DNA from: Alphaproteobacteria bacterium
GTDB taxonomy: Bacteria; Pseudomonadota; Alphaproteobacteria; SP197
Length of the DNA: 50,929 bases
Direction: 5' to 3'
NCBI GenBank assembly: GCA_022823765.1
Contig: JAJEHK010000255.1
Location: 1 to 50,929, forward strand
Shown: positions 2,668 to 50,289 of the stretch, in pieces
How positions within the stretch are numbered: position 1 is the stretch's first letter
How the letters are laid out: each line of letters begins with the position of its first letter
Program-made: the position numbers and the translations under genes
The notes under the pieces: model-generated
The model's database searches: none
Told to the model about the DNA's origin: nothing
Seen by the model: only the letters and a program-made list of their open reading frames with translations

Positions 2668-3042
2668 CGGGCTCCTGTCTGCCGGACGTGTTGCCCGCCT
2701 GCAGGCGTCTCGCCGGGTCATGCTTGCGGCCACTGGCGGCGGCGAGGTCGGGGATTGAAGGGTGCCGTTCCTTCAACCTGCGCAAGACGTGACCCGTCGC
2801 CAATCCGAACCCGGGCGCTCGGCCAGGCGATTTCCCGGTCCTTCGGGCTGCAGCATGTCGACCGCACCTCGTTGATTCGCCGGGTTCGGGGACCCTGACT
2901 GCGGGTGACGATCCCGGAGGCAGGTGCTGTCACCGATTGCGGCACGCGGCTGAACCGGAGTGAGTGGTGTGCGTCGGGCCATGGACGTTGCGTTGGCCCG
3001 GGCGATGGTCAAGTGTTCGAGATGACTGAGGGAGGTGGAGTC

Positions 3043-32530: not shown

Positions 32531-33841
32531 CTATCCGGCGCCACCGAAGGGATTGGGCATGCCGTCTGCGAAGCGGCGAAAACGGAAGGGGGTGAGATCC
32601 ACGGAAGGGGTCTGGCCTGTCACGAGCTCGGCCGTCACGCGGCCCGCTCCCGGACCGATGCCGAATCCGTGGCCGCTGTAGCCAGTCGAGAGATGGAACC
32701 CGGGAACCCCGTCCACTGCAGAAATCACGGGAATGGCGTCGGGGGTGACGTCGATCAGGCCGGCCCAGGTCTCCTCGATCCCGACGTCGGAAAGGGCGGG
32801 AAATGTTTGCAAGAGGTTTGAAAAGGTCTCGATGATCACGTTCCGGTAGGGCTTCGGGTTCATCACGCGGGTGGCCTCGAAGGGGCTCGTGTCGTCGAGG
32901 GTCCATCGCCTGCGGGTCACCATGTCACGCAGGCTTTGCCGCGACAGGCGAAATTTGAGGGCGTTCTTCTCGTGGCGCCATGCGGGCATGAAGTCGCTCA
33001 TCCAGCGCAGGGCATCGGGTCCAAGATGGAAGTCGGCCTGGTAGCCATGAGCCACCGTGTAACCGCCGTCCTCGCGTCGTCTCAATGCAAGGTCGTCAGC
33101 CCAGATCGCCCCCTCGAACACGGACGGAGCCGGTGTGGTCCTCATCACGTTGTTCTGGATGCGCAGCTGGGGAAGGGAGACGTCGTGATTGCCACAGAAG
33201 AGCGATGACCAGATGCCTCCGGCGAGCACCACGGTCGAGGTGGCCGTGATGCCGTGCTCCGTCACCACGCCGGCCACCCTGCCACGCTTGAGATCGAGGC
33301 CCCGGACAGCGCATCCGGTGATGATGCGTCCGCCAAGGCGTTCCGTTGCCCGCGCCAGCGCGGGGACCGCGAGGCGCGGTTCCGCGCGGCCGTCCGTCGG
33401 CGTGTGAAGGGCGCCCCGGAACGTCCCTTTCATGTCGGGAACAAGCGCGCTCAGTTCCCCCGCCGACAGCAGCTTCGAGCCCACCTGGAACTCCTTGGCA
33501 TGATCGACAAAGGCCTCGAAGGCAGCGATGTCGCCATCATCCCTGGCGGTGTAGAGAACGCCGTTCTGGTGAAACCCGACGTGATCGCCGATTTCGGCTT
33601 CGATTCCCCGCCAGATTCTCAGGGACTCGACAATGAGCGGCAGTTCCTCGGGCGCCCGTCCCTGCTGGCGCACGAAACCCCAGTTGCGGCTCGACTGTTC
33701 GCCGGCAATCCGGCCCTTCTCGAAGAGGACGACCGGGATGTTCCGCCTGGCCAGGAAATAGGCCGTCGAAACGCCGATGATTCCGCCACCGATGACAACG
33801 ACCTCAGCCGACTCCGGTATCCGGTCGGCCCGATCGATCAT
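32531..33841 (-). CDS. FAD-dependent oxidoreductase (DAO family; sarcosine/opine oxidase beta-like)
   Basis: VVVIGGGIIGVSTAYFLARR..PV.LFEKG.IAGEQSSRNWGFVRQQGR dinucleotide-binding N-terminus. 436 aa. Confidence 0.85.
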   Translation of the reverse strand: MIDRADRIPESAEVVVIGGGIIGVSTAYFLARRNIPVVLFEKGRIAGEQSSRNWGFVRQQGRAPEELPLIVESLRIWRGIEAEIGDHVGFHQNGVLYTARDDGDIAAFEAFVDHAKEFQVGSKLLSAGELSALVPDMKGTFRGALHTPTDGRAEPRLAVPALARATERLGGRIITGCAVRGLDLKRGRVAGVVTEHGITATSTVVLAGGIWSSLFCGNHDVSLPQLRIQNNVMRTTPAPSVFEGAIWADDLALRRREDGGYTVAHGYQADFHLGPDALRWMSDFMPAWRHEKNALKFRLSRQSLRDMVTRRRWTLDDTSPFEATRVMNPKPYRNVIIETFSNLLQTFPALSDVGIEETWAGLIDVTPDAIPVISAVDGVPGFHLSTGYSGHGFGIGPGAGRVTAELVTGQTPSVDLTPFRFRRFADGMPNPFGGAG

Positions 33842-33880
33842 GAAGCGGGAAGTCCCGGCAACCCTGCTCTCGTGGCCACT

Positions 33881-34102
33881 TCAGGCCACGAGAGCAGGAA
33901 TCTCGTCATCTTCGGGGAAACGGCCGAGGTCAAGTTTCGAGAACAGGACCTCATCTCCCCTGGTGATCTCGAAGGATCCGGTTCGTCCTCCAAAGATCTC
34001 GACGTCGCCTGCACCTGCACTGATGAGCTGATCCCTCGCACGGAGCGCCCGTGGCTCATAGTTTCAGGAGCGGCAGTATTCAATTCTGATCGCTTCGCTC
34101 AT
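33881..34102 (-). CDS. SelW-like (Rdx family) thioredoxin-fold selenoprotein with in-frame UGA (Sec) at 34064-34066
   Basis: My own translation: MSEAIRIEYCRS-U-NYEPRALRARDQLISAGAGDVEIFGGRTGSFEITRGDEVLFSKLDLGRFPEDDEIPALVA*. It fits the Rdx pattern I.YC..(C/U)....RA...L....V.L..G..G.FE....lfSK...GRFP. The CxxU motif sits where homologs have CxxC. Not on the ORF track because of the UGA. Confidence 0.7.
34023..34059 (-). other. candidate bacterial SECIS hairpin downstream of the UGA
   Basis: On the mRNA: UGA-AACU-AUGAGC-CACGG-GCGCU-CCGUG-(10 nt)-GCUCAU. Outer stem of 6 bp (34054-34059 with 34023-34028), inner stem of 5 bp, 5-nt apical loop starting with G about 16 nt after the UGA. Confidence 0.45.
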
Positions 34103-34160: not shown

Positions 34161-36578
34161 TCAGCCGAGAAGACGCTCATTGTCGGGGTCGAACGGCGCC
34201 TCCGGTGCAATGCGCGCCCGTCTCGGTTCCCCGAGAATCTCGACGTGGAGCGAGGAGGACGCAAGGTCGATTCCAGGGTCGAGGTAGGCCAGCGCAATCG
34301 AGTGCCCCACATGGTGACCGAAGCCGCCCGAGGACACTATGCCCACCACCTCGCCGTTCATCAGGACCGGTTCGTTTCCCCAGGCGTCGGCATCATCCGC
34401 ATCGACGAGGAGGGTGCAAAGCCGGTAGCGGGGCCCCTGGTTGTGGGCCTTGAGAAGCGCATCACGGCCGATGAAGCCACCCTTGTCCATGGCGACGAAG
34501 CGTCCCAGTCCCGCTTCGAAGGGCGTCGTGTCTGCGGTGAACTCCGCTCCCCAACGCCCGTAGCCCTTCTCGAGCCGCAGGGAATCGAGGGCCCTTGCTC
34601 CGCAAGCGACGAGGTCGAGATCCGCGCCTGCCGCCGTCACGGCGCGGTAGAGGGCCTTCAGATCGTCCCGCCCCACATGGATCTCGTACCCGAGGTCACC
34701 CGTGAAGGCGATGCGCATGACGAAGGCCGGCAGGCCGGCGATCTCCGTGTGGCGCGCTGACAGGAACGGGAATGCGGCGTTCGAGACGTCGTCATGGGTC
34801 AGTCGCCCGAGGAGTGTCCGGGCGTTGGGCCCGGCAACGGCGAAGCCGCCATAGTCCCCGGTGATGCTGCGCAGCGTGACGTCGTGATGGGGCAGGAACT
34901 GCGCGAAGTGACGCAGGTGGAAGGCCTCTGCAGCGCCGGAGCCGACCAGCCAGAACGCCGTATCGGAGAGTCGTGTCACGGTGAAATCGCCGATGATCCC
35001 GCCGGCGGCATTGAGCATGGGCGCCAGGACCGTGCGTCCGTGTCTTCGGGGAAGCCGGCAGGCCAGCAGATGATCGAGGAAGGCGATTGCGTCAGGACCC
35101 TCGACCTCGTAGCGGGCAAAGCCGGTGATCTCGATCATGCCGACGGCCCGGCGCAGGGCACGGCATTCGCGGCCCACGGCGGTGAACCAGTTGGGTCGGC
35201 GGAAGGAAGGAATGTCGCGCGCCTCCTCTCCGGGACCGGCAAACCACAAGGGGCGCTCGAGACCGAAGGCGGCGCCAAAGACCGCGCCGTTTCCTGCCAT
35301 CAGGTCATGCACCGGAGATGTCCTGACCGGTCTTCCCGATTCGCGTTCCTCTTCCGGCCAGCCGATGGCGAATCGCTTCGAATAGGTCTCCGCGGAACGC
35401 GCCAGGACAAAGGTCCGGTCCGCCCAGTCGCCGAAGCGGGTGACATCGAGCGGCATCATGTCAAGCGGCGGCACGCCCTCGAGAATCCAGTCGGCCAGTG
35501 CCCAGCCCACGCCGGCACTCTGGGAGAATCCGGGAATCATGCCGGCGGCGACAAAATGGCCCTGTTTGCCCGGAACGGGACCGACGAGAGCCGCGCCGTC
35601 GGGTGACCACATCATCGGGCCATTGACGACCCGCTTCACCCCGGCGGACCCGAGACAGGGCACGACGGAGATGGCGGCCTCCATGTTGGCGGAGATGCGG
35701 TCGATGTCGTCGGGCAGGAGTTCCATGCCGAAGTCTTCAGGCGTGCCGTCAACGGCCCAGTGGACACCTTCGCGCTCGTAGCATCCAAGCAGCATGCCCT
35801 TGCCTTCCTGGCGCAGGTAGAATTCGCTGTCCTGGTCGCGGGTCAGCGGGATTTCGCCCTCCAGCGCGGCAACCTCGGCGATGTCGTCGGTGACGACGTA
35901 CTGGTGCTCCATGGGGACGAGCGGCAGCGTGTAGCCGGCCATGGCCGCCACTTCCCTGGCCCAGAGCCCCGCGGCATTGACGACCGTTTCGGCGACAACC
36001 GTGCCCGCGGGCGTGGCGACATCCCAGTCGCCGTCGCAGCGGCGCGTGAAGCCGGTCACCGGCGTGTTTCTCGCGATGACGCCGCCCGCCTGGCGCACAC
36101 CCCTGGCGAAGGCATGGGTCACCCCGGAAGGATCGACGTGGCCGTCCGTAGCTCCCCACATGCCACCCAGAATCCGGCTGGTGTCGACAAGCGGATTGAG
36201 CTTCCGGATGTCGTCCGGGCCGATGATCTCGAACTCCTGGCCGAGATAGCGCGCCCGAGCCCGCTGGACCTTCAGTTCGTCAAGGCGGTCCGTGCTGGTG
36301 GCGAGGTAGAGCCCGCCACAGCGATGCAGGCCGCAGGACTGCCCGGTTTCCTCCTCGAGGCTGTCATAGAGCCTCAGGGAATAGTCCTGCAGGCGCGCAA
36401 GACTGGTGTTGGTGTGCATGGCATGAACGTTGGCGGCGGCATGCCATGTGGATCCCGACGTCAGGTCGGCACGCTCGAGCAACAACACATCCGAACAGCC
36501 GGCGCGGACCAGGTGCCAGGCGGCCGCGCAACCAACGACACCGCCACCCACAATGACGACACGGGCATGGGACTTCAT
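34161..36578 (-). CDS. dimethylglycine/sarcosine dehydrogenase-like enzyme (FAD DAO domain fused to GcvT folate-binding aminomethyltransferase domain)
   Basis: 805 aa. VVIVGGGVVGCAAAWHL, SGSTWHAAANV (covalent-flavin His context). The C-terminal half carries GcvT-type motifs (GYE.H, GRWGAEF, EPV...G..VG.V.SGG.G). Confidence 0.9.
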   Translation of the reverse strand: MKSHARVVIVGGGVVGCAAAWHLVRAGCSDVLLLERADLTSGSTWHAAANVHAMHTNTSLARLQDYSLRLYDSLEEETGQSCGLHRCGGLYLATSTDRLDELKVQRARARYLGQEFEIIGPDDIRKLNPLVDTSRILGGMWGATDGHVDPSGVTHAFARGVRQAGGVIARNTPVTGFTRRCDGDWDVATPAGTVVAETVVNAAGLWAREVAAMAGYTLPLVPMEHQYVVTDDIAEVAALEGEIPLTRDQDSEFYLRQEGKGMLLGCYEREGVHWAVDGTPEDFGMELLPDDIDRISANMEAAISVVPCLGSAGVKRVVNGPMMWSPDGAALVGPVPGKQGHFVAAGMIPGFSQSAGVGWALADWILEGVPPLDMMPLDVTRFGDWADRTFVLARSAETYSKRFAIGWPEEERESGRPVRTSPVHDLMAGNGAVFGAAFGLERPLWFAGPGEEARDIPSFRRPNWFTAVGRECRALRRAVGMIEITGFARYEVEGPDAIAFLDHLLACRLPRRHGRTVLAPMLNAAGGIIGDFTVTRLSDTAFWLVGSGAAEAFHLRHFAQFLPHHDVTLRSITGDYGGFAVAGPNARTLLGRLTHDDVSNAAFPFLSARHTEIAGLPAFVMRIAFTGDLGYEIHVGRDDLKALYRAVTAAGADLDLVACGARALDSLRLEKGYGRWGAEFTADTTPFEAGLGRFVAMDKGGFIGRDALLKAHNQGPRYRLCTLLVDADDADAWGNEPVLMNGEVVGIVSSGGFGHHVGHSIALAYLDPGIDLASSSLHVEILGEPRRARIAPEAPFDPDNERLLG

Positions 36579-36981
36579 CAGGACACTTCCTCAGCGATAG
36601 GGATTTCAGGGAAAGGGCAGGGGCGGCGGCGGTACGCATCGTCCTCTCGGGACCCGGCTTGCCGGCATCGACCCGCGTCCTGATCACACGACTCCAGGGG
36701 CGCACAGTACAGATCGTCCGCCCGCTGACAATTCCCGCATCCCCTTGCCCGAAACCGCGATGGCGACTTCTGGTCCGCAATGCTTCTCCGGACTCGCATT
36801 GAGCGCGACAACATTACGGAAACCGGTACCGGATATCGTCCGCAGCGTTTGGAGTGCGCCCGACCGCAAGCCGGACGTTTCCACGGCGGGCAGCACATGC
36901 TTCTGGCGACACCTCGCAGGCCCGTGCATAGTGGACGAGCATCGTGACGTTTGCGGCCGGAACCGGCACAAGGAGCAGCAG

Positions 36982-37974
36982 ATGACGGATTACAGCAGCT
37001 TGAAGGCGAGATTGCGCGACAGGGAGATCATCATTCTCGATGGGGCGGTCGGCACCCAGCTCCAGGCGACAGGCGTGCCTATGGACCCCTATTGCTGGGC
37101 AGCAATCGGCAACCACACCCACCCCTCCACGGTGCAGAAGATGCACGAGGACTACATACGAGCCGGCGCCGACGTGATCACCACGAACACCTATTCCGCC
37201 GCCCGCCACAACTATGAATTGGCAGGCCTGAGCGATCTCGTGATCGAACTCAACATCCGCGCCGTGCAGTTGGCGCAGCAGGCGCGGGAACGCGTCGCCG
37301 ACCGGCCGGTCTACATCGCCGGTTCGGTTTCGAACTTCGGCGCCTGGATCGAGTCCGAGTACCAGTGGTTCAGAAAGTCAGCCCGGGTGACCGCGGCATC
37401 GGGGCTGCGGGACCGCAGCCTCATTACCGAGGCGCAGGCGCGGCGCAACCTGGCCGAGCAGGTGGCCATACTTGTCGATGCCGGCGTCGACCTCCTGATC
37501 GCGGAGGCGACGGGCAACACGATTCAGCGCGAGTGGGTCCTGGAGGCGGTCGCCGGTGCCGGCATTCCCTACTGGGCCGGTTTCAAGTGTCACGTCAACG
37601 AGGGAGAAGAGGCGCCCCGCTCCGGTTACATGTCCGACGATTTGCTTTCCGACGAACTGGATGCGCGCCTTCCCCTCGATGCCGACGTCTTGTGCATCTT
37701 CCATTCGACCATCGAGGACACGAACCAGGCCATACCGGTGGTGCGCTCGAAGTGGAAGGGCGCACTCGGCGCCTATCCCGAGGCGGGGCGCAAGGATTAC
37801 ACGCAGGCGTTGGCGGATCCGAACACCGAGAATCCGCACACGATGGAGGAGTGGGTGACGACCGCCAGGCGATGGACCGATAACGGCGTGCAAGTGATCG
37901 GTGGTTGCTGCGGCATGGGCCTCGATCACATCCGTGCCCTCGACGGGCAGCTCCCTCATCGACTGGCTGCCTGA
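36982..37974 (+). CDS. homocysteine S-methyltransferase family protein (betaine- or S-methylmethionine-dependent)
   Basis: ILDGAVGTQL, ADVITTNTY and the C-terminal IGGCCGMGLDHIRAL (Zn-binding Cys pair) define the Pfam S-methyl_trans fold. ATG 36982 follows AAGGAG. The 36745 start is rejected. Confidence 0.85.
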   Translation: MTDYSSLKARLRDREIIILDGAVGTQLQATGVPMDPYCWAAIGNHTHPSTVQKMHEDYIRAGADVITTNTYSAARHNYELAGLSDLVIELNIRAVQLAQQARERVADRPVYIAGSVSNFGAWIESEYQWFRKSARVTAASGLRDRSLITEAQARRNLAEQVAILVDAGVDLLIAEATGNTIQREWVLEAVAGAGIPYWAGFKCHVNEGEEAPRSGYMSDDLLSDELDARLPLDADVLCIFHSTIEDTNQAIPVVRSKWKGALGAYPEAGRKDYTQALADPNTENPHTMEEWVTTARRWTDNGVQVIGGCCGMGLDHIRALDGQLPHRLAA

Positions 37975-42438: not shown

Positions 42439-43586
42439 GAAACCTTCCGGAATTCGACACGGACGAGATGCTGGATGGCCTCGGCGCCTGGGTGCTCGTC
42501 GAGAGCCCCACCAATGTGCCCGAGGGCGTCAATGCCATGATGGATCTCGCCGAAGCCGAGATGGTGTCTCTGGGAGCGGCTATCACCCGGGAACCGGGAG
42601 GCGACGGATACGGGGACGTGCTCGTCGCCCGCGTGGAGGGCGCTGTCGAGGACAAGGGCATCCTGGTTCTGGGCCACCTCGATACCGTGCATGGCGTCGG
42701 CACCCTGGCGGGCCCACTCCCGTTCCGTCGCGACGGAGACCGGCTCTACGGTCCGGGCGTCTACGACATGAAGGGCGGCATGTATGCCGCCTGTTACGCC
42801 ATGAAGCAGCTGTTGCGCGCCGGCCGTACCCCGGGTCTGCCGGTGACCTTCATGTTCATCCCCAACGAGGAGGTCGGCAGCCCGACGACCCGGCAGCGCA
42901 TCGAGGACGAAGCGCGGCGACATCGCTTCGTCCTCGTTCCGGAACCCGCCAAGCAGGGCCGGCTTGTGACCGGACGTCACGGCATCGCGCGCTACATCGT
43001 GACGACCCGCGGGAGACCCTCCCATGCCGGTGCGACCCTCGCCCGGGGTGCCAGCGCCATCCGTGAAATGGCCCATCAGATCCACGCCATCGAGGCGACG
43101 TCGGATCCCGGTTCCGGGACCACGATGAGCGTCGGCATCGTCAACGGCGGCACCTTCGTCAACGTCGTTCCCATCGAGTGCCGTGCCGAGGTTCTGGCGG
43201 TCTTTCCCACCCGCGAGGCCTTCGATTCAATTGCCGCGTTCATGTCCTCCCTGAAGCCGGTCAACACGGATGTCACGATCACCGTGGAGCCCGGACCGGT
43301 GCGGCCCCTCTTCGAGCCGGGAGCGGGGACGCTCGCTCTCTATTCCCGCGCCGAGGAGATCGCGAAATCCATCGGCTTCGTACCGGGCCACGGCAGCTTT
43401 GGCGGAGGGAGTGACGGCAATTTCACCGGTGCACTTGGCATCTCCACACTCGACGGCCTCGGGCTCTGCGGTGACGGCGCCCACACGCACGAAGAACACA
43501 TCCTCGTCTCCTCCCTGGTTCCCAGGGCGCGCCTTCTGGCCGGTCTTCTTGAGAGTCTCGGGGATGCGGAATTCAACGCCCCGTGA
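42435..43586 (+). CDS. M20 family metallopeptidase (carboxypeptidase G2-like)
   Basis: GHLDTV, YGPGVYDMKGG, NEEVGSP and GGSDGN motifs. ATG 42435 overlaps the hydrolase stop (ATGA). Confidence 0.85.
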   Translation: MRNLPEFDTDEMLDGLGAWVLVESPTNVPEGVNAMMDLAEAEMVSLGAAITREPGGDGYGDVLVARVEGAVEDKGILVLGHLDTVHGVGTLAGPLPFRRDGDRLYGPGVYDMKGGMYAACYAMKQLLRAGRTPGLPVTFMFIPNEEVGSPTTRQRIEDEARRHRFVLVPEPAKQGRLVTGRHGIARYIVTTRGRPSHAGATLARGASAIREMAHQIHAIEATSDPGSGTTMSVGIVNGGTFVNVVPIECRAEVLAVFPTREAFDSIAAFMSSLKPVNTDVTITVEPGPVRPLFEPGAGTLALYSRAEEIAKSIGFVPGHGSFGGGSDGNFTGALGISTLDGLGLCGDGAHTHEEHILVSSLVPRARLLAGLLESLGDAEFNAP

Positions 43587-44691
43587 AAGGCAGACCGGTG
43601 ACCTCTCCGTCGCGTGTGCCGTCGGGGGTGGTGACCGCCACCGGCGTTCCCGGATCCCAGGCGCTGCGTTCCATCATGGCAAGGGCGATGTTGGTGGCGA
43701 GGTCGGGCGAGAAGGCCGCCGATGTCACCTGACCGGCCGGTTCGCCGGACCGCAGCACGGGCCACGGTTCGACACAGGCCGGCGCCGCTCTTCCATCGAA
43801 CCTGATGCCGCGGATGATCCTCGCCGGACCGCCCGAGTCGCGGATGCGTTCGAGGGCGTCGCGGCTGATGAACTCCACGGGTGATTCGAGATTCACAAAG
43901 CGGTCGAGACCGCACTCGAAGGGATTGTTCGCGATCGTCATGTCATTGCCGTGCGAGAGCAGGGCCCCCTCGATGCGCTCGATGAGATTCGGGCAGCCCG
44001 GTCCCACACTGAGGTCCCCGCCGGCGGCAAACAGAGCGTCCCACAAGGCCTGCCCGCTGGCCGCATCGTCGATGTAGATCTCGAATCCGCCCTGTTTGGA
44101 CCATCCCGACCGCGCCACCACGAACGAATGGCCGGCAAAGGGCACCACCGCAAAACCGAAGAAGCGGATGTCGCGCACCTGATCGCCGAGCACCCTCGAG
44201 AGGAGGTCGTCGGCCTTGGGCCCCTGTACGGCGATGGGTCCGATGCCCGGCTCGAAGACACGTGCGTCAAGGCCAAGGCCAAGGACAAGGCCCTTGGCCC
44301 ACAGCGCAACGTCGGAGTCGGCGAGGGAGATCCAGAAACGGTCTCCCGCCAGGCGCAGAATGACCGGGTCGTTGATCATGCCCCCCGTCTCGTCCACCAG
44401 GGGCGCATAGGCACACCGGCCCGGCGCCAGGCGGGAGATGTCGCGCGGTGTCATCAACTGCACGAGGCGGGCCGCGTCCGGGCCCACCACCTCGACCTGC
44501 TGTTCGCAGGTGACATCCCAGACCTGAACATGCCGCTTGAGGTGGTGGTAGTCCTCCTCGAGCCCACGGAAGAACGTCGGCAGGAGCATGTGGTTGTAGA
44601 CGGTGAAGCCGCCGACACCCTGTGCCTCGATCCGTGACGAGAATGGTGTACGGCGGGTGCGGCGCGATATCGAGATCACGGGTTCATGCAT
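43573..44691 (-). CDS. aminomethyltransferase (GcvT) family protein, DMSP demethylase DmdA-like
   Basis: RRTRRTPF, TVYNHMLLPT, HVQVWDV, DETGGMINDPV, ARSGWSKQGGFEIY and PNLIERIEGALLSHGNDM resemble DmdA as I recall it more than canonical GcvT. The 3' end overlaps the M20 gene by 14 nt. Confidence 0.65.
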   Translation of the reverse strand: MHEPVISISRRTRRTPFSSRIEAQGVGGFTVYNHMLLPTFFRGLEEDYHHLKRHVQVWDVTCEQQVEVVGPDAARLVQLMTPRDISRLAPGRCAYAPLVDETGGMINDPVILRLAGDRFWISLADSDVALWAKGLVLGLGLDARVFEPGIGPIAVQGPKADDLLSRVLGDQVRDIRFFGFAVVPFAGHSFVVARSGWSKQGGFEIYIDDAASGQALWDALFAAGGDLSVGPGCPNLIERIEGALLSHGNDMTIANNPFECGLDRFVNLESPVEFISRDALERIRDSGGPARIIRGIRFDGRAAPACVEPWPVLRSGEPAGQVTSAAFSPDLATNIALAMMERSAWDPGTPVAVTTPDGTRDGEVTGLPFTGR

Positions 44692-46843: not shown

Positions 46844-48301
46844 ATGAGCAGGGGCACCACTGTCTTCGCCCTGATCGTTTCCGTGCTGCTCATCGCTGCA
46901 GCCGGCGTGCTCAACATGCTGGCAAGGCAGGGCGGCGAAGCGGTGCTCGCCGATGCTGCCGTGATGGCAACGGAGATTCGCGGTGGCGTGGCGGAGTCAG
47001 GGGCGTCGGCCGTCGACGGGTCTCTGGAGACGGCATCTCGACTGGTGGCAACCCTCGAGTCCATTCCCGACCTTGCGGACGACATCGCGGGCACTGCGGT
47101 CGCGTTGAGAGAGGGGCTGCAACAGAGAAGGCTCGCGATCGATGCCATCCTTGATGCGGATGCGGCGCTCACGCAAGCGATCGATGCCTGGAGGTCGGCG
47201 GCTGAATCGGTGGCTGGAGAAGCCGGAACGAGGGCACAGGAACTGACCGGGCTCGTGGAGGACATGGACCGATACCTTGCCGGGACCGGGTCCGCTCCGA
47301 CCCTTGATGCCGTGCGGGCCCACAACGACGTGACCCTTGTTGCGGCAGCAGACAGGCTGCTGACCGACAAGCGCACCCTTGACGAGCTGCATCAGGAGCT
47401 GGCTGTCGACAGGGTGGCCGGCGTTGCCGAGCAGCTTGTCATGTCCCTGGAGAACGAGCGCGCCCGGCGGGCGCTTGTCGTGCGCAACTATGACGACGGT
47501 ACGGTTGCCGCCCTCGGCGCCCTGGCGCTTTTCTGGGTTCTGCTTGGCATCCGTGGGCGTCGCCGCAGCGAGCCGGTTCAACAGACTGCGGACCCGGGGC
47601 GGGGAAGGCTGTTCATCCGCGGTACGGCGGCGGCAGTGACGGTGCGGGCCCAACGTCTCGCTTCGCACACCAATGCTCTCAGACAGTCCCGCCAGAGACT
47701 TGGAAACGCCATCATGGAGGCCGGGCTCGACCGGTCGCTCAATGACGATGCGCCCCTTCACCGGGAGGTCAAGGCGATGGACGTTCATCTCGCCACCCTG
47801 CGCGACGAAACCGGTGAGCTGTCGGCGCTGGGCAAGCGTCTGTGGACTCTCGCCGGGGAGGCGGCGCCGTCGCCGTCGGTCAGCATCAACGCGTGCATCA
47901 GGGAAGCCCTCGAGGCGATCAGGGCAGGCCACCGTATGCCCGTCATGACGGAACTTGCCGATGTCGGCCATGTCAGGGGCGTGGCATCCGACATTGTCCT
48001 GGCCCTGACAGCCCTGATCGAGAGAATTCTCACCGCCTCCCGGGAATCGGGATTGGGGCACAGCGCCGTTCGCGTCTTCACCACGGCCGGTGATGACCAG
48101 GTGCATGTCACCATCACCGGAGGGGCTCCCCTTCCGCGGTTCACGGAACACACGTTCAGGCCGTCCGGCGCCTCCCACGAACTGGCGCTGGCCGTCGCTC
48201 TTCTCAGGCGCCATGGCGGCAGTGTGACCCTGGGTTCATCCACTGCCGGGGAAGCCTCGGCACGCATATCCCTTGCTGCCGCATCGGGAGACCAGACATG
48301 A
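46844..48301 (+). CDS. two-TM membrane protein with Ala-rich helical periplasmic region and a degenerate C-terminal histidine-kinase-like ATPase domain
   Basis: MSRGTTVFALIVSVLLIAAAGVLNML (TM1), VAALGALALFWVLLGI (TM2). The C-terminal about 130 aa has HATPase_c-like layout (..VLALTALIERIL.., VHVTITGGAP.., LALAVALLRRHGGSVTL). I see no H-box and no DxGxG G1 box. ATG 46844 follows GGGAGG. Confidence 0.6.
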   Translation: MSRGTTVFALIVSVLLIAAAGVLNMLARQGGEAVLADAAVMATEIRGGVAESGASAVDGSLETASRLVATLESIPDLADDIAGTAVALREGLQQRRLAIDAILDADAALTQAIDAWRSAAESVAGEAGTRAQELTGLVEDMDRYLAGTGSAPTLDAVRAHNDVTLVAAADRLLTDKRTLDELHQELAVDRVAGVAEQLVMSLENERARRALVVRNYDDGTVAALGALALFWVLLGIRGRRRSEPVQQTADPGRGRLFIRGTAAAVTVRAQRLASHTNALRQSRQRLGNAIMEAGLDRSLNDDAPLHREVKAMDVHLATLRDETGELSALGKRLWTLAGEAAPSPSVSINACIREALEAIRAGHRMPVMTELADVGHVRGVASDIVLALTALIERILTASRESGLGHSAVRVFTTAGDDQVHVTITGGAPLPRFTEHTFRPSGASHELALAVALLRRHGGSVTLGSSTAGEASARISLAAASGDQT

Positions 48302-50289
48302 AGGCGTTGCGTTTTCGGGTTCGCAACTATCGCAACATCGAGGACAGCGGCTGGGTAGCACTCGATCCGGTCACGGTCCTTGTCGGGCGCAACGAGTCGG
48401 GCAAGACCTCCCTTCTGAAGGCACTCAACAAGTTCAATCCGGGCACGGCGGAAACCTATGATGCCCAGCGCGAGTTTCCACGTGACCGCTACACGCGCGA
48501 CTACATCCTTGCCGGTTCAACGGGGGCTGAGTGGCCTGTCTGTTCCATCGAGTTCGAGATTCCGGAACAGCAGAAGAGCGATATCGCGACCCTGCTGGGC
48601 CCGGCCCGGGCAGTGCCCGAGACGGTTACCGTCACGCGTCACTACGACGGCTCCCTCGGTTTTTCCTACATGCCGCAGATCGGAGCCAAACCGGCACAGC
48701 CAGCCCCTCTCATGGAGATCCTCGAGGGTCTGGCACTTGGAGACGACTCGCCGCGCCTGGCAGCATGGTCCAGCGAGTGGTACGACCGGTTCGCCGGGCT
48801 TGATGACGTCGCGAGCGCCACCGGCCGAACCCTGCTCACCGAAATCGACGAAGAGATTGCGGGACTTGATGATGAACGGCTCAGTGCTCTTGGCGCTGTC
48901 GTCACCGCCATGCTGCGGATGCCCTTCGGGAGCAGGGTGGTCGATCATGTCAATGCCCTGGTGGAACGTGAACTGCCGCGTCTCGTCTACTTCGAAAACT
49001 ACGGCGTGCTCGACAGCGCCATCTGGTTGCCGGAGATGTTCAGGGGCCTTGAACGCGAGGAACCGGAACCGCGTTTCAGAACGGCGCTTGCGCTTTTCCG
49101 TCATGCGGGCCTCGATCCCCGGGACATCGCGGAACTGGGTGCCACGGACAACAGGGCATCGGGTGAGGCGATGCAGCGCCAGATGGAGGAGCGGGCCATC
49201 CGGCTCAATGCAGCGTCGGTCGACATCAGCCGTCGCTGTGCCGAGCTGTGGTCACAACGGCGCCATCGCATCCGCTATCATGTTGACGGAGATTACTTCC
49301 GCATCAGGGTCGCTGACGATTCGCTGGAGGATGTGGAGATAGAGCTGGAATCCCGCGGCAAGGGCTTCCAGTGGTTCCTCTCCTTCTTCCTCGTCTTTGC
49401 CGCGGAGTCCGAGGGCGGCATGGGCGATGCCATCATATTGCTGGACGAGCCCGGTCTCAGCCTTCACCCGACGGCACAACGCGAACTGCTGGTGTTCTTC
49501 GAGCGTCTGTCCGAACAGAACCAGGTCATCTACACGACTCATTCGCCGTTCCTTATCGACGGCGATCACCTTGACCGGGTGCGTCCGGTGTTCGAGGACG
49601 ATACGGGGCATGCCCGCATCCTCAAGGGTTCATGGCCGGCCCATCCGGAAACGGTCTTCGCACTCAAGGCGGCAGCCGGGTATGCGATGTTCGATTCCCT
49701 GTCGGAGCAGGGTCGGTCTCTGCTTGTCGAACATGTCAGCGATGCCTGCTATCTGGAGGCGCTGTCGCGGCACTGCGCCCGGACCGGCAGGAGTGCGCTT
49801 GACGGATCCGTCGAAGTGGTGCCCTGTGGCGGTGCGGCGGTGTGCGGTTACCTGGCATCGCTTCTCATGGCCGAGAACCGTCGTCCTCTCATTCTCTTCG
49901 ACGGCACCGACACCGCGCGGCTTCGACGGCATGGACTGGTGAGGGAACTCCTTGATGAGGGAGACAGCTCGATGGTTCTCCTCGACGAGGCCCTTGGCTG
50001 GTCCGGACATGACGTGTGCCTCGAGGATCTGTTCGGAGAGAGCCTCATCCTCGAAGGTCTCGCAAGCGCGACCGGAATCCGCCTTTCGCTGGGTGAAGAT
50101 GGACATCAGGCCAGCCTCGTCGGCCGCATCGAGAGCGCGGCGGAGGCGGCGAACATCACGCTCCCCCGTTCCTGGCGGCTGTCGACGGCCCTGGCGGTGA
50201 CGTCGTCACAGGACTCCCCGCCGGATGACGTCCTCGATTCGGCATCGCTTCTCTTCACGCAACTTGCCGGCGACGGCAAGGGACGGTGA
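48298..50289 (+). CDS. OLD-family / PARIS-like nuclease: ABC-type ATPase fused to a Toprim (DUF4435-like) domain
   Basis: Walker A LVGRNESGKTS (aa 28-38), signature-like ESRGKGFQWFLSF, Walker B AIILLDEPGLSLHP, H-loop YTTHSP. C-terminal LLVEHVSD (Toprim Glu), VVPCGG, ILFDGTD (DxD) and CLEDLF. The ATG overlaps the upstream stop (ATGA at 48298-48301). Confidence 0.75.
   Translation: MKALRFRVRNYRNIEDSGWVALDPVTVLVGRNESGKTSLLKALNKFNPGTAETYDAQREFPRDRYTRDYILAGSTGAEWPVCSIEFEIPEQQKSDIATLLGPARAVPETVTVTRHYDGSLGFSYMPQIGAKPAQPAPLMEILEGLALGDDSPRLAAWSSEWYDRFAGLDDVASATGRTLLTEIDEEIAGLDDERLSALGAVVTAMLRMPFGSRVVDHVNALVERELPRLVYFENYGVLDSAIWLPEMFRGLEREEPEPRFRTALALFRHAGLDPRDIAELGATDNRASGEAMQRQMEERAIRLNAASVDISRRCAELWSQRRHRIRYHVDGDYFRIRVADDSLEDVEIELESRGKGFQWFLSFFLVFAAESEGGMGDAIILLDEPGLSLHPTAQRELLVFFERLSEQNQVIYTTHSPFLIDGDHLDRVRPVFEDDTGHARILKGSWPAHPETVFALKAAAGYAMFDSLSEQGRSLLVEHVSDACYLEALSRHCARTGRSALDGSVEVVPCGGAAVCGYLASLLMAENRRPLILFDGTDTARLRRHGLVRELLDEGDSSMVLLDEALGWSGHDVCLEDLFGESLILEGLASATGIRLSLGEDGHQASLVGRIESAAEAANITLPRSWRLSTALAVTSSQDSPPDDVLDSASLLFTQLAGDGKGR

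Follow-up and report, generated by a model that had tools for sequence, protein, structure and literature searches.

In both of the marine metagenome surveys considered here, SelW-like proteins ranked first in abundance among the prokaryotic selenoprotein families, with 48 Sec genes against 7 Cys homologs in the Sargasso Sea (PMC1088965) and 427 Sec genes against 56 Cys homologs in the GOS dataset (PMC2398784). SelW-like CxxU proteins with SECIS elements of the kind described below are established bacterial selenoproteins (PMC1088965, PMC2398784). The gene analysed here lies on the minus strand of the window (the whole stretch of DNA that was analysed, 50,929 nt). It shares with the bacterial SelW-like selenoproteins (PF10262, formerly PF05169; TIGR02174) a length of about 70-80 aa, an N-terminal beta-strand followed by CxxU, the common blocks G.F.(V/I), FSK and RFP, and an in-ORF SECIS just past the UGA whose small apical loop contains G. 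The excess of Sec over Cys known from the bacterial SelW-like catalogues, such as the GOS counts given above, is found here as well (45 TGA, one Cys and one Ser). Nothing categorical separates the new gene from these proteins; its clade differs by the signature CRSU-NYEPRALRARDQL and by a degenerate apical stem. To judge from its sequence, the gene is an unannotated SelW-like selenoprotein of an already known family, scoring above the Rdx and TIGR02174 thresholds. The biological novelty is small, because SelW-like proteins already rank first among the prokaryotic selenoproteins of ocean metagenomes, and it is the covariation-defined apical loop and the clade-specific link to two amine-oxidising flavoenzymes that may go slightly beyond the catalogues. 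The gene order DMGDH-like/SelW-like/DAO-type is not mentioned in PMC1088965 or PMC2398784, and the words 'sarcosine' and 'dimethylglycine' do not occur in PMC2398784.

Two further systems serve for comparison. The mammalian selenoprotein W (2NPB) and MIEN1/C17orf37 (2LJK) contain a homologous domain (E = 4e-6 to 4e-3), in which CxxU or CxxC occupies the same place. Eukaryotic SelW relies on a SECIS in the 3'-UTR together with SBP2 and eEFSec, whereas the SECIS of the present gene is located inside the ORF, in the bacterial style, and the sequence identity to eukaryotic Rdx proteins is low. The reference SelB-binding hairpin is the SECIS of E. coli fdhF, an imperfect stem with a small G-U loop that is situated within the ORF, directly 3' of the UGA. 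The window hairpin likewise follows the UGA within the ORF and combines an imperfect stem with a G-U loop, but it has no sequence similarity to the fdhF element, the apical stem of the clade is shorter and contains two 1x1 mismatches, and SelB binding is here a prediction.

A gap of 319 nt separates the start of the DAO-type gene at 33841 from the end of the DMGDH-like gene at 34161. The sole conventional ORF within it lies at 33838-34083 on the minus strand; it is the out-of-frame ORF of 81 aa mentioned in an earlier interpretation made without database searches (hereafter the sequence-only reading). The positions which that reading gave for the ATG, the in-frame TGA and the 73-residue product were all found to be correct on the minus strand (Table 1). 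Minus-strand translation gives the product MSEAIRIEYCRS-U-NYEPRALRARDQLISAGAGDVEIFGGRTGSFEITRGDEVLFSKLDLGRFPEDDEIPALVA, 73 residues long, in which IEY-C-R-S-U places the CxxU motif at residues 10-13, directly after the first beta-strand near the N-terminus. The Cys10 codon is TGC in the window and in all 15 alphaproteobacterial loci compared. In the alphaproteobacterial loci, the ATG is preceded at a constant distance by a purine-rich block (GGGAA, AGGAA or GAGGAG), and the GGGAA of the window is a probable Shine-Dalgarno sequence.

Table 1. Positions of the features of the SelW-like locus and of its neighbourhood in the window.
Feature	Position	Strand	Basis or remark
DAO-type FAD oxidoreductase	32531-33841	minus	Pfam
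15-bp perfect hairpin, terminal UGA in 6-nt loop	33863..33898	minus	-34.8 kcal/mol, z = -7.19
SelW-like (Rdx family) selenoprotein gene	33881..34102	minus	73 codons + stop, predicted Sec = codon 13
Terminal stop TGA	33883-33881	minus	translation
SECIS element, whole	34023..34059	minus	lower stem encloses apical hairpin
SECIS lower stem AUGAGC/GCUCAU	34059-34054 with 34028-34023	minus	94% paired in close clade
Apical hairpin, family-conserved	34031..34049	minus	stem 34049-34043 with 34037-34031; RNAalifold consensus + covariation
Apical loop CGUGC	34038..34042	minus	invariant G 34041, then U 34040
In-frame TGA, codon 13, predicted to be read as selenocysteine	34066-34064	minus	TGA retention across loci
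Cys10 codon TGC, first redox residue of CxxU	34075-34073	minus	Cys conserved in every homolog
Start ATG	34102-34100	minus	translation
Shine-Dalgarno candidate GGGAA	34109..34113	minus	6 nt 5' of ATG
DMGDH-like protein, 805 aa, DAO/FAO_M/GCV_T, dimethylglycine-dehydrogenase architecture	34161-36578	minus	Pfam
Homocysteine S-methyltransferase-family protein	36745-37974		domain match
DMSP demethylase DmdA	43573-44691	minus	NF009133, 543 bits vs cut-off 410

The HMM searches were performed with U replaced by C in the 73-residue protein. The Pfam Rdx model PF10262 gave a score of 55.5 bits against a curated cut-off of 22.6, and since the alignment covers residues 5-72 of 73, the match extends across the UGA. 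The match to TIGR02174 (CXXU_selWTH), with 49.7 bits against a curated cut-off of 34.2, also crosses the UGA. The top NCBIfam model was NF041051 (SelTWH_Campy), which was matched over the full length with 74.8 bits; this score is below the equivalog cut-off of 88 bits, and the gene is therefore outside the SelTWH_Campy subfamily. The PDB sequence search returned only Rdx-fold proteins: MIEN1/C17orf37 (2LJK, E = 4e-6), SAV_2001 (3DEX), Atu0228 (2FA8) and mouse selenoprotein W (2NPB). The CxxC of the solved Rdx proteins aligns on the C-R-S-U of the window, as CEPC in 2LJK and CTQC in 3DEX. By these profile and PDB matches, the locus is an Rdx/SelW-family gene, which agrees with the assignment made in the sequence-only reading. 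The UGA had also been placed there at the second position of the CxxC/CxxU motif, and it indeed aligns with the Cys of 2LJK and with that of the metagenome homolog L037 (CAPC).

The protein search retrieved mostly C-terminal fragments of 44-54 aa; the few full-length proteins among the hits had W or S in place of Sec, and the codon was therefore read from the DNA. The genome scans found TGA in 14 of 14 loci from Alphaproteobacteria MAGs (72-99% aa identity) and in 5 of 5 loci from Anaerolineales MAGs (about 34% identity). Near-identical orthologs are located on complete chromosomes, among them OZ244844.1 (L004) and CBDCRU010000002.1, each with 99% aa identity, and OZ219918.1. Among the 23 full-length metagenome loci, TGA is present in 22 and a Cys codon in L037, while in one additional metagenome locus (L045) the codon is lost to the contig end. 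The three homologs deposited with 'W' (P0003, P0005 and P0017; loci L046, L048 and L049) all have TGA in their DNA, and a homolog on a 1,968-nt contig (P0001, locus L047) has TCA (Ser), one base from TGA. The tally, with the window included, is TGA in 45 loci, Cys in one and Ser in one. The TGA-bearing relatives come from genomes as well as metagenomes and belong to two phyla. Whether orthologs carry a sense codon or TGA had been raised as a check in the sequence-only reading, and 44 relatives turned out to keep TGA.

Within the clade, the codons of Ile7, Tyr9 and Arg11 vary at the wobble position only, and the ATG, Glu8 and Cys10 are invariant. Such wobble-only variation 5' of the UGA indicates that the N-terminal segment is under protein-level selection, which excludes an untranslated leader or a pseudogene. 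In the window itself, TGA is the stop codon of 22 of the 28 Pfam-supported ORFs. The retention of TGA in 44 relatives, together with its use as an ordinary stop, argues for recoding rather than for a pseudogene or a changed genetic code. The locus is very probably a genuine and functional Sec-encoding SelW-like gene, whose predicted 73-residue product has a Cys10-x-x-Sec13 redox centre.

Two other residues were considered as ancestral at the Sec position and rejected. The W of the deposited homologs is TGA in the DNA, which removes Trp, and a true Ser codon (TCA) is found only in L047, one base from TGA, which removes Ser. The L047 gene (54-281), a close homolog with TCA at the Sec codon, retains the sequence of the SECIS region; its TCA either arose by recent mutation from Sec to Ser or reflects a sequencing error.

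The window matches a metagenome scaffold (ENA ERZ23491513 scaffold_1182; Logan SRR16351692), and the gap is uncalled there (L001/L002). Elsewhere, gene callers have produced fragments of about 47 aa (P0002, and P0004, which is named 'Rdx family protein'), so the expectation that standard gene callers would miss or truncate the gene was borne out in both respects. The deposited orthologs from public MAGs take two forms, fragments of 44-54 aa and full-length proteins in which 'W' stands for Sec. Trp at this position is seen in the protein records P0003, P0005 and P0017 and their relatives (L046 3064, L048 696, L049 515), where the calling pipeline evidently applied a Mycoplasma-type code to the TGA. 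This replacement of Sec by W is an annotation artefact that affects short selenoprotein genes systematically, and the locus provides a clean example of a selenoprotein gene dropped or truncated by pipelines.

The minimum free energy fold of the window sequence is a two-tier stem-loop, which spans 34023-34059 and is capped by the loop GCGCU (34048-34044). Compared with shuffled sequences, its stability is ordinary (z = -1.49; 16 of 200 shuffles fold equally well or better), so the hairpin is uninformative when taken from one sequence and it is comparative evidence that carries the case beyond chance. Among 12 distinct close relatives, 8 have A.C in place of the G-C pair that closes the upper stem of this fold, and the A-U pair of the same stem is disrupted in 3; the breaks fall at the wobble positions of Pro and Arg codons. 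The RNAalifold consensus is a longer imperfect stem capped by CGUGC, in which one wobble-wobble pair varies between AU, GU and GC. The apical stem is imperfect in the clade of the window (G-U, G.A, C-G, G.G, C-G, U-A, C-G), and the CGUGC loop starts 21 nt past the UGA. The 13 alphaproteobacterial sequences contain too little variation to separate three alternative upper stems. As the close clade was too uniform to decide, 40 distinct segments from all loci, the diverse metagenome loci included, were aligned without gaps over the UGA and the following 57 nt.

The covariation analysis of this alignment showed that nearly all 40 sequences form a stem of about 7 bp (columns 18-24/30-36) with a 5-nt loop at columns 25-29, which reads GGUCU, AGUUU, AGGUU, AGUAU or CGUGC. 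In this family apical helix, 81% of the cells are paired and the covariation score is 0.488, against 0.06-0.11 in slid controls (at most 0.108); the score of 0.488 is reached by 0 of 500 shuffles. Compensatory changes occur in 5 of its 7 pairs, with 59 double-sided changes compared with 3-12 in the slid controls. The lower stem alone is paired in 62.5% of the cells with a covariation of 0.158 (slid controls 0.05-0.18); its covariation is modest family-wide, with pair 9-43 formed by UA in 15 sequences and by CG in 9. All 40 sequences have G in column 26, and as the residue encoded by its codon changes among Arg, Gly and Ser, this invariance points to a constraint at the RNA level. The apical loop of the family SECIS can be fixed by covariation, and it differs from the fold that is thermodynamically favoured in this clade.

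The bounds and the lower stem of the SECIS proposed in the sequence-only reading stand, the lower stem being well paired in the close clade, whereas its upper stem and its G-initiated GCGCU apical loop are not supported, as covariation places the loop 6 nt further 3', at 34042-34038. The conservation of the hairpin in orthologous loci, which had been suggested there as a check, was found in the form of this overlapping hairpin, which covaries over the 40 sequences. It is conceivable that the element folds in the earlier manner after all (CACGG/CCGUG, 34053-34049 with 34043-34039, closing a GCGCU loop above the same lower stem), in which case the gene would still encode a selenoprotein. This fold has the lower energy in the window (-12.0 vs -10.9 kcal/mol), its pairs have an ensemble probability of about 0.75, its loop begins with G, and its hairpin starts 10 nt past the UGA, close to the 11-nt spacing between the UGA and the hairpin in the minimal E. 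coli fdhF element. Against it stand the broken closing pair described above and the family-wide data, in which the earlier helix is paired in 51.5% of the cells and the whole structure has a covariation of 0.088, no higher than the slid controls (0.03-0.15), while the competing family hairpin has both strong covariation and an invariant loop G. Because the family stem is degenerate in this clade and is energetically second in the window, we keep the earlier fold as a minority rival, unlikely but with an appreciable chance of being right, and the hairpin with the CGUGC loop is the preferred SECIS.

The Rfam search at gathering and permissive thresholds yielded no match to a SECIS family, only chance hits. 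Four of the Anaerolineales loci (L018-L021, UGA at 3025, 3025, 2789 and 3025) have the apical loop CGUGA, 4 nt nearer to the UGA, and a further one, L017, keeps the family loop position with AGUUU.

The remaining explanations concern the coding status of the gene. The automated annotation in many genomes (P0002, P0004, P0006-P0016) is compatible with the production of only a 47-aa C-terminal fragment from an internal ATG (Met26, MSAGAGD...), the upstream part being an untranslated leader. We consider this very improbable, as the internal start is not conserved, the deposited fragments begin at differing positions, the 12 codons before the UGA, which include IEYC, show protein-level conservation across phyla, and the 47-aa piece would be devoid of the redox motif and of the first strand and helix of the Rdx domain. 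A pseudogene, with the TGA as a nonsense mutation in a former Cys-encoding Rdx gene, might be suspected because the Sec machinery is not seen in the window and because in L047 the Sec codon is replaced by a sense codon, TCA. The same codon is TGA in 44 other loci from two phyla with the frame intact and both sides conserved, the substitutions 5' of the UGA are wobble-only and the RNA hairpin is kept; these comparative data effectively refute the pseudogene, and its probability appears negligible. Just as negligible is an alternative genetic code with UGA as a sense codon for Trp or Gly, for which the W at the UGA position in three deposited records (P0003, P0005, P0017) could be cited, since the TGA-stopped ORFs of the window, the SelW-like gene itself among them, cover the full length of their Pfam models when translated with table 11, and Trp at the catalytic CxxC/CxxU residue would be non-functional.

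The Sec decoding machinery was searched for in the window and its relatives. The window scan compared 30 ORFs with Pfam, of which 28 had family matches, and 8 ORFs with NCBIfam, where two more were matched; the window and 31 loci were also scanned for tRNAs. These Pfam, NCBIfam and tRNA scans of the window and flanks revealed nothing related to selenium, and selA, selB, selD and tRNA-Sec were found neither in the 51-kb window nor in any fetched flank. A crude screen of the window for further in-frame TGA candidates gave none with a redox motif; its sensitivity was low, as it missed the UGA of the SelW-like gene itself.

The reading of the locus as a Sec-encoding gene has direct support in its family membership, in the strict retention of TGA between stretches of conserved coding sequence, in the covariation of the hairpin and in the use of TGA as a stop. 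According to this reading, the in-frame UGA would be recoded as selenocysteine during translation. The in-ORF SECIS would display the small apical loop CGUGC with its conserved G-U, to which SelB-GTP carrying Sec-tRNA(Sec) would bind by analogy with the characterised bacterial systems. SelB would thereby bring Sec to the ribosome paused at the UGA, and after the insertion of Sec13, translation would run on to the second UGA. The product would be a small thioredoxin-like thiol/selenol oxidoreductase that forms a transient Cys-Sec selenenylsulfide, and oxidoreductase activity of this type is its most likely function. The SelB-dependent decoding, the incorporation of selenium and the redox role are all predicted steps.

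The flavoprotein, S-methyltransferase-family and DmdA genes listed in Table 1 place the SelW-like gene in a setting of methylated-amine and one-carbon catabolism. The presence of a DmdA gene in the window suggests a marine origin, and the host is probably a marine alphaproteobacterium that degrades methylated compounds. A marine host would fit the report that SelW-like selenoproteins predominate in marine samples (PMC2398784). The order DMGDH-like, SelW-like, DAO-type is kept across the alphaproteobacterial clade, down to 79-80% identity of the DMGDH-like protein (L013, L014). In L015, L016 and L047, a DAO homolog (64-71% identity) still follows downstream in the same orientation, and it is absent from those fetched loci that are more distant.

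The perfect hairpin at the end of the SelW-like gene includes coding sequence (PALVA) in its 5' arm. Hairpins of unrelated sequence that likewise enclose the stop codon in their loop are situated at the same place in L013, L015 and L016. A U-tract does not follow the hairpin of the window and the terminator scan of the locus found nothing; lacking a U-tract, it is not a canonical intrinsic terminator. It may act as a terminator, an attenuator or a stabiliser of the transcript or its 3' end between the SelW-like and DAO-type genes.

The hexamers TTGGAT (34157-34152) and TAGGAT (34133-34128) are present on the minus strand just past the DMGDH-like stop. They are conserved in the alphaproteobacterial loci, with a spacer that varies from 16 to 18 nt, and they look like the promoter of the SelW-like gene. 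The consensus promoter scan of the locus did not call this pair, so it is the conservation of the hexamers that argues for a promoter.

Downstream of the SelW-like gene, the DAO-type ORF lies in the frame of the terminal TGA, from which it is separated by 13 sense codons (33841-33883, minus strand). The spacer measures 39 or 30 nt, a multiple of 3, in the close clade, and 46 nt in L013 and 104 nt in L014. A read-through fusion of the SelW-like and DAO-type proteins was rejected because the frame relation is lost in L013 and L014, and the in-frame arrangement is probably a coincidence.

In another part of the window, a 663-aa ORF (48298-50289, plus strand) shows sub-threshold similarity to anti-phage AAA ATPases. 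It resembles PtuA, MADS3 and the effector of retron Eco8 (E = 1e-7 to 1e-11) and may be a defence gene.

The predicted selenoprotein gene implies that an uncultured alphaproteobacterial lineage uses selenocysteine, and its conserved linkage to flavoenzymes of methylated-amine catabolism is a testable hint on the function of the protein. One speculative interpretation, to which we assign only a small chance, is that in this clade the SelW-like selenoprotein serves the flanking DMGDH-like and DAO/sarcosine-oxidase-like flavoproteins as their dedicated redox partner. If this were true, the stop-codon hairpin might tune the ratio of expression between the selenoprotein and the downstream flavoenzyme, and the locus would provide the first physiological context for bacterial SelW-like proteins.
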